Shown here in pieces: positions 22,486 through 23,444 of a stretch of DNA of 64,000 nucleotides. Under the pieces are notes generated by a model. It saw only the letters and a program-made list of their open reading frames with translations, was not told where the DNA came from and did no database searches. The translations under genes were made by a program, and so were the position numbers. Numbering within the stretch: position 1 is the stretch's first letter; the number at the start of each line of letters is the position of its first letter. Location: contig JAAXTX010000004.1 of NCBI GenBank assembly GCA_013336285.1, positions 624-64,623 on the forward strand, read 5' to 3'. The stretch is from Candidatus Moraniibacteriota bacterium. GTDB taxonomy: Bacteria > Patescibacteriota > Minisyncoccia > Moranbacterales > UBA1568.

Positions 22486-22509
22486 ATCAGCCTCCTTTGA
22501 ACGTTGTGC

Positions 22510-22523
22510 CCTTCGGCCGAAGG
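22510..22523. promoter_or_regulatory. Perfect 14-bp palindrome CCTTCGGCCGAAGG in the 5' leader of the ART-fold gene (copy 1 of a shared leader element)
   Basis: Context CGTTGTGCCCTTCGGCCGAAGGCATAA..AAGGAGG..ATG. A homologous element lies upstream of the rSAM gene at 23390-23425. Confidence 0.5.
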
Positions 22524-22546
22524 CATAAATAACATAAGGAGGAAAA

Positions 22547-22849
22547 ATGGCACGGTATTTTCACGGGACAAGCAGCGCTAACTTGCAAGCAATAATGACT
22601 CACGGGCTCATCGGAGGTTTAAACCTGACAGAAGCGAGGCGCAGGAATACGGAAATCGTTTTTTTAACGACAAATTATCAGAGCGCCGTCGGTTACGCCG
22701 GGAGAAGCAAGGCGCAACGCGGCGGTAAAGCCGTGGTATTGGTCGTTTCATCTTCCGAGGCAAGACCGTGGAAGAATAAAAAAGGTTGTACTATATTTAC
22801 GGCGCCAAACGTAATAGCACAGGAAATTTGTAAGGTAATTGAACTATAA
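22547..22849 (+). CDS. Small ADP-ribosyltransferase-fold protein (H-G-T motif; resembles the Tpt1/KptA C-terminal NAD-binding lobe)
   Basis: RYFHGTSSANLQAIMTHGL at the N-terminus (the H-Y-E ART clade has [FY]HG[ST]). Later IVFLTT, AVGYAGRS, KAVVLVV and IFTAPNVIAQEI parallel the Tpt1 C-lobe blocks. Only 100 aa. Confidence 0.4.
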   Translation: MARYFHGTSSANLQAIMTHGLIGGLNLTEARRRNTEIVFLTTNYQSAVGYAGRSKAQRGGKAVVLVVSSSEARPWKNKKGCTIFTAPNVIAQEICKVIEL

Positions 22850-22862
22850 AAAGGGCAGAGAC

Positions 22863-23063
22863 ATGGGAAAAACAGAGAAAATAATTCGGATGATATTAAG
22901 AATGGCGGTTGCACCCTGCGCTCTTATCGCTCCATTCCTGATTATGTTGGGCGTGTGGTCGATGAATATCCATAACGGGGAATCTGCTGTATTGGCTATT
23001 GGTGGCGGTGTAGGTTCCTCACTCGTAGCTTGGATATGCTGGCTGCTTGAGGAACCGGCATAA
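22863..23063 (+). CDS. Small two-helix membrane protein
   Basis: MGKTEKIIRMILRMAVAPCALIAPFLIMLGVW...AVLAIGGGVGSSLVAWICWLL. The track ORF starts at 22839; the ATG at 22863 avoids overlap with the upstream gene. Confidence 0.4.
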   Translation: MGKTEKIIRMILRMAVAPCALIAPFLIMLGVWSMNIHNGESAVLAIGGGVGSSLVAWICWLLEEPA

Positions 23064-23097
23064 ATCCTTCAAGGTGGGTTCTGATACGGACCGCCGT

Positions 23098-23135
23098 GCA
23101 CCGGGATCTTAACAGATTCCGGTGCTTTATTTATC
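23098..23135 (+). terminator. Rho-independent terminator after the ART-fold/TM pair
   Basis: GCACCGG, a 14-nt loop, CCGGTGC, then TTTATTTAT. Confidence 0.45.
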
Positions 23136-23407
23136 ACGATTTATAACCATTTCCATAACGATGACTGCATGTCGTACCACTCTCCCATTTTCTCATGGCA
23201 CTTTTTATAATCGATTAACATTTAATAATTCGTGGAAGAATATTCGACAGAAAGTTGCCTTAAAAAAGGCATTAAGTATATATATTAGCCTAATAATATA
23301 AATAGTCTCTGACAACTTTTTAAAAAAAGCAGTATACTTCAGTGTTACGGTGATATACGATTGAAGCTTAAAAAATGCGAAATATTTCCCGTTTCGTCCT
23401 TGTGCTC

Positions 23408-23417
23408 TCCGGCCGGA
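23408..23417. promoter_or_regulatory. Palindrome TCCGGCCGGA in the rSAM leader (copy 2 of the shared leader element)
   Basis: Context CGTCCTTGTGCTCTCCGGCCGGAAGCATAAGAAC..GGAG..ATG aligns with copy 1 (shared CGTyyTTGTGC, CGGCCG core, AAGCATAA). Confidence 0.5.
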
Positions 23418-23444
23418 AGCATAAGAACTAAACGGAGATAGTTA

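Follow-up and report, generated by a model that had tools for sequence, protein, structure and literature searches.

Two neighboring genes in a 64-kb stretch of the genome of a Candidatus Moraniibacteriota bacterium (contig JAAXTX010000004.1, referred to as the window) are preceded by copies of the same short leader element, a palindrome centered on GGCC that lies immediately upstream of the Shine-Dalgarno (SD) sequence. The first gene encodes p100, a 100-aa protein with an ADP-ribosyltransferase (ART) fold, the second a radical S-adenosylmethionine (SAM) enzyme with a SPASM domain (rSAM-SPASM), and a gene for a TrmB-like regulator is located divergently beside them. Is the palindrome a DNA operator of this regulator, or does it act as RNA in the leaders of the two genes? 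A preliminary description of the window had put both readings forward. Our computations establish the structure of the element, its covariation, its sense-strand orientation, its fixed place before start codons and a predicted masking of the SD at any plausible growth temperature. We consider it probable that the element is a cis-acting mRNA leader hairpin, most likely a translational operator that would be opened or locked by a putative trans-acting factor.

Both leader sequences quoted in the preliminary description are present in the window as given. They have in common a 25-nt core, TTGTGC-NN-TYY-GGCC-RRA-R-GCATAA, in which 21 of 25 bases are identical and which coincides with the two inner hairpins of Table 1. 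The perfect palindromes could be confirmed as CCTTCGGCCGAAGG in copy 1 (14 bp) and TCCGGCCGGA in copy 2 (10 bp). The spacing to the ribosome-binding site is alike as described, with the core ending 9 nt before the SD in both copies; from the end of the core to the ATG, the distance is 19 and 21 nt. Scanning the window for the core pattern with up to three mismatches returned these two sites only, and none in 100 dinucleotide shuffles; also a covariance-model search of the window found no third copy. The duplication of the leader is real and not due to chance. Its extent, however, has to be redrawn. The left boundary had been set too far to the right. The functional unit includes an anti-SD stretch that pairs with the SD, and it begins at 22491 and 23383, which is 9–17 nt upstream of the earlier limit. 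The CGTyy portion of the originally proposed motif is not conserved in other genomes. Nor is the similarity confined to about 45 nt, as the whole upstream regions of approximately 220 nt (22331–22546 and 23225–23444) are paralogous and share promoter-like sites with the same TATACT −10 box at equal distance from the ATG.

RNA folding showed that the palindrome is only the apex of a 52–58-nt hairpin, whose base pairs the upstream anti-SD stretch with the SD of the gene. TTGTGC and GCATAA are the two strands of an inner stem that includes one G·U pair, and three pairs separate the GGCC tetraloop from a single-base bulge in the 5′ strand. The hairpin has a three-part build. A basal helix formed by the anti-SD (CCUCC or UCUCC plus U's) and the SD also takes in a few bases after the SD and is followed by a variable middle helix with internal loops; the apical stem-loop, made of UURUGC, the one-nucleotide 5′ bulge, three pairs and the GGCC tetraloop, is near-invariant. 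Copy 1 folds with −22.0 kcal/mol (22485–22550, z −3.83) and copy 2 with −24.4 kcal/mol (23380–23448, z −4.64), and in both cases none of 200 shuffles folds as well. The corresponding covariance-model matches score 42 bits (E 7e-7) and 41.3 bits. In the basal part of copy 2, UAUUUCC and GUUU pair with AAAC and GGAGAUA.

Comparison loci, designated by L-numbers, were fetched from related genomes and metagenome contigs. They originated from rSAM relatives in species-representative genomes, from a scan of metagenome contigs with the 25-nt pattern, and from exact-protein look-ups for rSAM and p100 homologs; the covariance model R1 was run over all of them. The module was found at 28 tabulated places plus L048 and L049, in about 20 Patescibacteria contigs, and every one of these instances lies on the sense strand, 20–33 nt before a start codon, with the anti-SD stretch 5′ and the SD 3′. 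The preliminary description had proposed to compare the upstream regions of rSAM and ART-fold genes among relatives; in this comparison, the element recurs before orthologs and does so with covariation.

The downstream genes are rSAM-SPASM orthologs in most cases, and in about 20 contigs the inner hairpin upstream of such an ortholog is identical or nearly identical to that of copy 2. Other genes that follow the module encode p100 homologs (window, L003/L004/L035, L040, L041), a second radical-SAM protein of 430–435 aa (L001, L045), a 764-aa B12-binding radical-SAM protein (L039) and an SDR-like protein (L005). Seven of the eight loci from the metagenome pattern scan lie in such leaders, and one, probably a chance match, is situated within a coding region. 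A closely related 25-nt pattern had no match in 2.9 million viral contigs. We discarded a dispersed palindromic repeat, for example, a repetitive extragenic palindrome or a miniature inverted-repeat transposable element, because the 64 kb contain only two copies, both in leaders, and other contigs carry one or two copies that are always oriented with the downstream gene.

The module is optional. It is missing before rSAM orthologs that are 56–67% identical to the window protein (L006–L008, L014, L016, L020, L025, L029, L050, L053), and the SDR-like gene has it in L005 and lacks it in L042 and L004. In L004, where p100 and rSAM appear to form one operon and are separated by neither a good promoter nor a good terminator, the hairpin stands internally, in front of the rSAM gene; this fits a control of each cistron at the level of translation. 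We regard the module as a plug-in that would have been added to an older promoter and leader in one Patescibacteria clade and may have spread among the leaders of co-regulated genes.

The initial collection of 18 instances folds into one common architecture throughout. For the inner hairpin, 21 distinct sequences could be aligned without gaps. Here 89% of the cells are paired over 13 pairs, and seven pairs show changes on both sides, which none of 500 shuffles reaches; when the partner was slid by 1–3 columns as a control, pairing fell to 38–50%. An alignment of the flanks with MAFFT misaligned the outer helix, so that RNAalifold saw the inner stem only, and it was replaced by a covariance-model alignment. 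In this model-fitted alignment the whole hairpin comprises 24 pairs with 92.5% of the cells paired and 16 pairs changed on both sides (again 0 of 500 shuffles), and eight of the ten pairs of the SD helix covary. The inner-stem covariation is the cleaner result, since the whole-hairpin alignment leans towards structure. Furthermore, when the 26 distinct 5′ flanks were each folded against the SD-bearing 3′ flank of the same leader, every one paired more strongly than its shuffled versions (z −1.2 to −5.6).

The alignment bears directly on the DNA reading, in which a dimer of the divergent TrmB-like regulator would bind the palindrome in double-stranded form and act as a roadblock between promoter and gene. 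Such an operator would account for a core that is a perfect palindrome of 10–14 bp, and for the fact that half of the inner-stem positions are invariant in sequence, beyond what pairing requires. It would also agree with the neighborhood, as 27 of the 28 tabulated instances adjoin a TrmB-like gene, which is usually divergent; the sole instance without this neighbor, the SDR copy of L005, is located beside a 281-aa protein without Pfam match. However, each of the 21 distinct copies has an additional base in its 5′ arm, never in the 3′ arm, which puts the two arms out of register. Copies within the same genome, where the regulator is the same, differ by compensatory changes in both arms. In the window, the usual UCC/GGA at the top of the stem is replaced by UUC/GAA in copy 1; L003, L035 and L040 have UCC/GGA versus UCU/AGA, and L001 has UUAUGC/GCAUAA versus UUGUGU/ACACAA. 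In L043 and L044, an AGCC loop (CCAGCCGG) disrupts the center of the DNA palindrome while the stem stays intact.

The asymmetry of the pairs also reveals which strand is read. Pair 6-26 is G·U in 10, A-U in 6 and G-C in 5 of the 21 sequences, but never A·C, and the ten core inner-stem pairs of the fitted alignment contain 16 G·U or U·G cells and no A·C cell. The presence of G·U in the absence of A·C identifies the sense strand, and on DNA the frequent G·T-type asymmetry without its A·C counterpart speaks against an operator. Moreover, the inverted symmetry does not end with the palindrome but runs on to the anti-SD and the SD, with spacers that are unequal and variable (8–12 nt on the 5′ side, 13–30 nt on the 3′ side). 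Spacers of this kind would be tolerated by an RNA internal loop, but not by a dimeric operator. Base pairing, not sequence symmetry, is what is conserved.

The hairpin also fails to follow the regulator. It is unchanged beside at least four groups of TrmB-like paralogs that are 28–37% identical to each other, and at least ten TrmB-rSAM pairs do without it (L006, L008, L011, L014, L016, L020, L025, L026, L029, L053). In addition, the paralogs have palindromes of their own at canonical places, TTGTGGAAAATATTTCGACA on the one hand and TGACGA-N7-TCGTCA beside the TrmB start on the other. Because the hairpin is constant across TrmB paralogs and missing from many TrmB-rSAM pairs, the TrmB-like proteins go with genes and promoters and not with the hairpin. 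The operator reading of the preliminary description thus finds no support in the bulge, the compensatory changes, the AGCC center, the independence from paralogs or the hairpin-less pairs, and we regard it as quite improbable.

The TTGTGGAAAATATTTCGACA palindrome occurs with at most two mismatches at the same place beside the TrmB gene of the window type in 13 loci, where it lies between a minus-strand TTGACA-17-TATAAT promoter and the ATG. Besides the window, it was noted in L001, L002–L005, L032, L035, L040 and L042–L045, and there this promoter of the TrmB strand is perfect. The palindrome is a likely candidate for the autoregulatory operator of the TrmB-like gene. Before the rSAM gene, at 23229–23252, a degenerate remnant of it has been retained, which indicates a duplication of the entire intergenic region. 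TGACGA-N7-TCGTCA adjoins the start of TrmB-like genes of other paralog groups in hairpin-less loci (L006 ~3838–3858, L016 ~3810–3830, L026, L053), and these sites are candidate paralog-specific operators. Via such other sites, the neighboring TrmB-like proteins probably exert a separate control on the transcription of the hairpin-bearing genes.

Folding further predicts that the SD is masked in both leaders. At 37 °C, its unpaired probability in one calculation is 0.004 for copy 1 and 0.075 for copy 2, compared with a median of 0.32 over 45 crude gene calls in the window; a longer leader context gave 0.000 and 0.009. In principle, a leader hairpin that contains the SD could be an RNA thermometer. 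In both copies, however, the predicted pairing of the SD exceeds 93% at temperatures up to 55 °C: the unpaired probability of the copy 1 GGAGG does not exceed 0.002 up to this temperature, and that of the copy 2 SD rises from 0.009 at 37 °C to 0.068 at 55 °C. There is also no match to the Rfam ROSE or fourU families. An intrinsic terminator or attenuator, as a related possibility, would call for a T-run after the stem, which is absent on either strand; the 3′ flank of the hairpin is A-rich (AAAUAACAUAAGG; GAACUAAACGG), and a terminator scan lists nothing at the element. We therefore hold thermometer and terminator alike to be extremely improbable. The RNA reading of the preliminary description gains support. 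Its stem with a GGCC loop 5′ of the ribosome-binding site, suited to translational control, extends to the SD, covaries and recurs in about 20 contigs, whereas transcription attenuation is not sustained for lack of a U-tract.

Invariant in the alignments are five of the ten core inner-stem pairs, the loop (AGCC only in L043 and L044) and the position of the bulge, while the rSAM protein diverges to 53–73% identity. Among unpaired positions only the 4-nt loop is conserved (GGCC, once AGCC), and the internal loops vary in size and sequence. This pattern bears on the question of what would read the hairpin. In a riboswitch, the hairpin, perhaps with an upstream 5′ hairpin and the AAGNUCNUUGAAAAU box, would bind a small ligand (for example, SAM, one of its by-products or a metal) and alter the masking of the SD. 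A structured, conserved and SD-sequestering leader before functionally linked enzyme genes, three of them for radical-SAM enzymes, would be in agreement with this, and so would a second conserved, regulon-specific single-stranded box 20–30 nt upstream. Small riboswitches of the hairpin type are known, for example, guanidine-II and THF-II. However, the conserved unpaired bases are those of the 4-nt loop only, and the variable bulge base (U, C or A) and internal loops leave little for a ligand pocket. Rfam 15 gave no relevant match, neither for the window at gathering thresholds nor for 22300–23500 at E ≤ 10 or seven related loci at E ≤ 1. A SAM-V riboswitch-like match at 22824–22880 scored 20.8 bits where the threshold is 41 (E 1.5); located outside the element, between p100 and the small membrane open reading frame (ORF), it was judged a chance match. 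The hairpin is, moreover, gained and lost independently of the box, and no conserved alternative pairing was seen that would free the SD. Two candidates for such a pairing join the box UUGAAAAU to UUUUC of the anti-SD extension or to AUCAA of the 3′ strand. Inspected by eye, neither is conserved: L024, for example, has an uncompensated G-to-A change, and UCAA is missing from the window, L037 and L039. A riboswitch appears unlikely to us.

The hairpin might instead be a constitutive structure without a dedicated sensor, which damps the translation of costly or oxygen-sensitive enzymes or serves as an RNase III-type processing or stability element. Its high stability of about −20 to −30 kcal/mol and its position also between cistrons would suit such a role, and since close relatives do without the hairpin, it must be dispensable. 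Yet a damping or processing stem would not need a near-invariant loop, bulge position and half inner stem amid rSAM identities of 53–73%, and this explanation, too, is a rather unlikely one. Two further ideas on the loop were set aside. A kissing dimer via the self-complementary GGCC would have to form from a closed tetraloop, which is a poor kissing partner, and L043 has AGCC; for a T-box or codon-like reading of the loop, there is no supporting feature.

For the translational operator, we may outline a mechanism. By default, the hairpin would block 30S binding and keep translation off or low. A trans-acting factor might then recognize the conserved bulged apical stem-loop and either lock or melt the basal helix, which would set expression. 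This factor is more likely a protein than a metabolite, because conserved unpaired bases limited to a 4-nt loop, together with the invariance of half of the inner-stem pairs, favor a macromolecular reader over a metabolite pocket. A conserved loop on an invariant inner stem is a pattern typical of protein operators such as the MS2- and IRE-type hairpins.

Several points weigh against this model. It is computational throughout, its trans-acting factor is hypothetical, and no conserved alternative (ON) fold that frees the SD was found in the leaders examined by eye. Low SD accessibility is not unique to the two genes, which rank 4th and 7th among the 45 crude gene calls. Conservation, not covariation, prevails in much of the basal helix, the whole-hairpin alignment was fitted to a model that favors structure, and the sequences come from related lineages, so that the shuffle controls overstate significance. 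A swap of flanks failed to separate native from non-native partners (−12.05 versus −11.2 kcal/mol), a test that is uninformative because the shared UCUCC:GGAGA core of anti-SD and SD dominates it. A second constraint, acting on the DNA, might likewise explain why the inner stem is so strongly conserved in sequence, and the promoters and transcription starts are consensus matches only.

Among known systems, protein-bound translational operator hairpins are found in the MS2 and Qβ replicase operator and in the translation-inhibition stem of phage Mu mom, which is opened by Com. In analogy to these, the element is a bulged hairpin with a 4-nt loop beside or including the ribosome-binding site, in which loop and bulge position would be sequence-specific features and locking or melting would set translation. 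In contrast to them, the recognition hairpin is separate from the SD, which lies 9 nt away in the basal helix, and the element belongs to a chromosomal set of several genes and not to a phage gene, with a binding protein that is hypothetical. A second analogy may be drawn to the regulon of iron-responsive element (IRE) and iron-regulatory protein (IRP), where likewise a short hairpin with a conserved loop and a 5′ bulge a few pairs below is copied into the 5′ leaders of linked mRNAs, and the mRNAs that carry the hairpin here mostly encode Fe-S (radical-SAM) enzymes. This likeness is architectural only, since the IRE works in eukaryotic cap-dependent initiation, has the loop CAGUGN and does not pair with an SD. 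The link to Fe-S is suggested by the gene set and by one locus with the rSAM gene beside Rrf2-IscS-NifU only. We may speculate on an IRE-like post-transcriptional regulon in Patescibacteria, a doubtful but conceivable case, in which a putative RNA-binding factor, possibly a reporter of Fe-S, SAM or redox state, would jointly lock and unlock the ribosome-binding sites of three radical-SAM enzymes and their companions, atop transcriptional control by TrmB-like proteins.

Like the riboswitch platforms that sequester an SD (guanidine-II mini-ykkC, THF-II, preQ1), the leader hairpin masks the SD and has conserved motifs before enzyme genes. It differs from them in that it has no Rfam match, hardly any of its unpaired nucleotides is conserved, and a conserved alternative fold was not found. 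TrmB-family operators, for example, the Thermococcales TGM TATCAC-N5-GTGATA or TACT-N3-AGTA, are also palindromic DNA near genes that adjoin a TrmB-family regulator. The element has an unrelated sequence, is placed deep in the leader next to the SD, has offset and compensatory arms and is independent of the TrmB paralog. A leader or operator hairpin that sequesters the SD is a well-known type of control; the motif itself is absent from Rfam 15 and from the literature searched, in which we also found nothing on the rSAM family, on TrmB-like regulators of bacteria of the Candidate Phyla Radiation (CPR) or on cis-regulatory RNA in these bacteria.

Table 1. Positions of the two leader hairpins, their neighboring genes and further sequence features in the window
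Feature	Positions	Strand	Basis or remark
TrmB-like winged helix-turn-helix regulator gene, divergent neighbor	21551–22330	−	Pfam PF01978, E 6e-16
Imperfect palindrome TTGTGGAAAGTATTGCGACA, candidate autoregulatory operator, outside the hairpin	22335–22354		Adjoins TrmB-like start codon
Copy 1 promoter-like site TCCACA-17-TATACT	22415–22443	+	Consensus match; start inferred
Copy 1 version CAGCTCCTTCAAAAT of leader box AAGNTCNTTGAAAAT	22463–22477	+	Box exact in many related leaders
Copy 1 whole SD-sequestering hairpin, leader of the 100-aa ART-fold gene	22491–22542	+	Fold and covariance model
Copy 1 anti-SD strand CCUCCUUUG	22491–22499	+	Pairs with AAGGAGG and CA in minimum-free-energy and centroid structures
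Copy 1 inner hairpin UUGUGCC-C(bulge)-UUC-GGCC-GAA-GGCAUAA	22504–22528	+	Loop 22515–22518
Copy 1 Shine-Dalgarno AAGGAGG	22536–22542	+	Fully paired in fold; ATG at 22547
p100, 100-aa ART-fold protein, regulated gene 1	22547–22849	+	AlphaFold2 model, pLDDT 83.6
Copy 2 promoter-like site CTGACA-18-TATACT	23309–23338	+	Leader begins near GTTACGG at 23344
Copy 2 degenerate version GAAGCTTAAAAAAT of leader box AAGNTCNTTGAAAAT	23363–23376	+	Read by comparison with related leaders
Copy 2 whole SD-sequestering hairpin, leader of the rSAM-SPASM gene	23383–23440	+	Fold and covariance model
Copy 2 inner hairpin UUGUGCU-C(bulge)-UCC-GGCC-GGA-AGCAUAA	23400–23424	+	Loop 23411–23414
Copy 2 Shine-Dalgarno GGAG	23434–23437	+	Pairs with UUCC at 23386–23389; ATG at 23445
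Radical SAM/SPASM enzyme, regulated gene 2	23445–24578	+	Pfam PF04055 and PF13186

If the promoters of Table 1 are real, both hairpins would sit 40–95 nt into their transcripts. The −10 box is followed by GTTA or GTTG, and about 20 related leaders have the same architecture. In several loci (L018, L037, L038, L043, L001, L045, L020, L014, L029) the leader starts with a conserved GTTA(A/C)GATGA or GTTGAGATG about 5 nt after the −10 box; a degenerate form is present in the window at 23344–23362. This conserved start forms a 5′-terminal hairpin with a loop of 3 to about 55 nt and is kept even in distant CPR lineages without the SD-masking hairpin. The leader box AAGNTCNTTGAAAAT, with the core TTC-N3-GAA, is regulon-specific and lies 20–40 nt upstream of the SD. 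Many related leaders contain it exactly and always on the plus strand; further places of the motif are L018 3867–3881, L037 4877–4891 and L046 10963–10977. It occurs with or without the hairpin (without, for example, in L016, L020 and L050), is repeated before each cistron in L045, and is not enriched across the window, with 29 matches versus 26 expected. Common to both upstream regions is also GATATACGATT(C)GAA, which is found at non-equivalent positions, upstream of the −35 in copy 1 (22393–22407) and inside the leader in copy 2 (23352–23366), and this suggests a rearrangement after duplication.

In the window, the order of genes is TrmB-like regulator (minus strand), p100, a 66-aa membrane protein, a terminator and the radical SAM/SPASM enzyme. 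Against PDB entry 3qph (TrmB), the TrmB-like protein matches in its N-terminal domain only. The ART-fold label given to p100 at the outset holds: p100 has no Pfam match, but the top Foldseek PDB matches of its AlphaFold2 model are to the NAD lobe of Tpt1/KptA (TMq 0.68, E 1e-5). Tpt1/KptA is an RNA 2′-phosphotransferase, and p100 is a stand-alone ART-fold protein. It is rare, with only five clusters in 5.8 billion proteins. A small membrane protein follows p100 in three loci, namely the window (22863–23063), one JGI contig and L040, and is missing in L003/L004 and L041.

The rSAM-SPASM family is strongly conserved. The window, which comes from a Candidatus Moranbacteria genome, encodes a member that is 100% identical to a protein of an NCBI metagenome-assembled genome. 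It has 155 homologs at E ≤ 1e-10, and the 120 of them that are listed are 44–73% identical, CPR and DPANN included; the listed matches at 53–73% identity include Nanoarchaeota, Pacearchaeota and Woesearchaeota. NCBIfam contains no equivalog for it, and PDB sequence searches gave no match for the rSAM protein or p100. Of the 31 genome loci (L001–L031), about 20 have a TrmB-like gene divergently beside the rSAM gene. In one lineage (L051/L052, 1–9131), an rSAM ortholog without TrmB neighbor or hairpin adjoins Rrf2-IscS-NifU-MnmA, with Fur, an NrdD fragment and an Fe/Mn superoxide dismutase upstream, a context that hints at a link to Fe-S or redox metabolism. In L045, ORFs of 59–87 aa precede radical-SAM genes in operons (10700–11260 and 5270–5890, minus strand); one of them has a CRCDWC motif, others are membrane-like, and a perfect hairpin together with the TTGAAAAT box recurs in the intercistronic regions. 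This arrangement may be a cassette for a membrane protein or one resembling those of ribosomally synthesized and post-translationally modified peptides.

As far as the sequences compared here can tell, the motif is confined to one Patescibacteria clade and marks a small, uncharacterized gene set rich in radical-SAM enzymes. The RNA hairpin, located in the leader, could be told apart from the DNA palindromes of the promoters, two overlapping signals that a reader of the sequence would take for one. The element defines a small co-regulated set that comprises rSAM-SPASM, two more radical-SAM enzymes, an SDR-like protein and a rare stand-alone ART-fold protein. The many radical-SAM enzymes of these bacteria lack an assigned function, and the element, as a short and easily synthesized RNA, is usable as a bait for the controlling factor or signal. 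If our model applies, it points to a control of translation at the RNA level in these bacteria, besides their abundant TrmB-like regulators.

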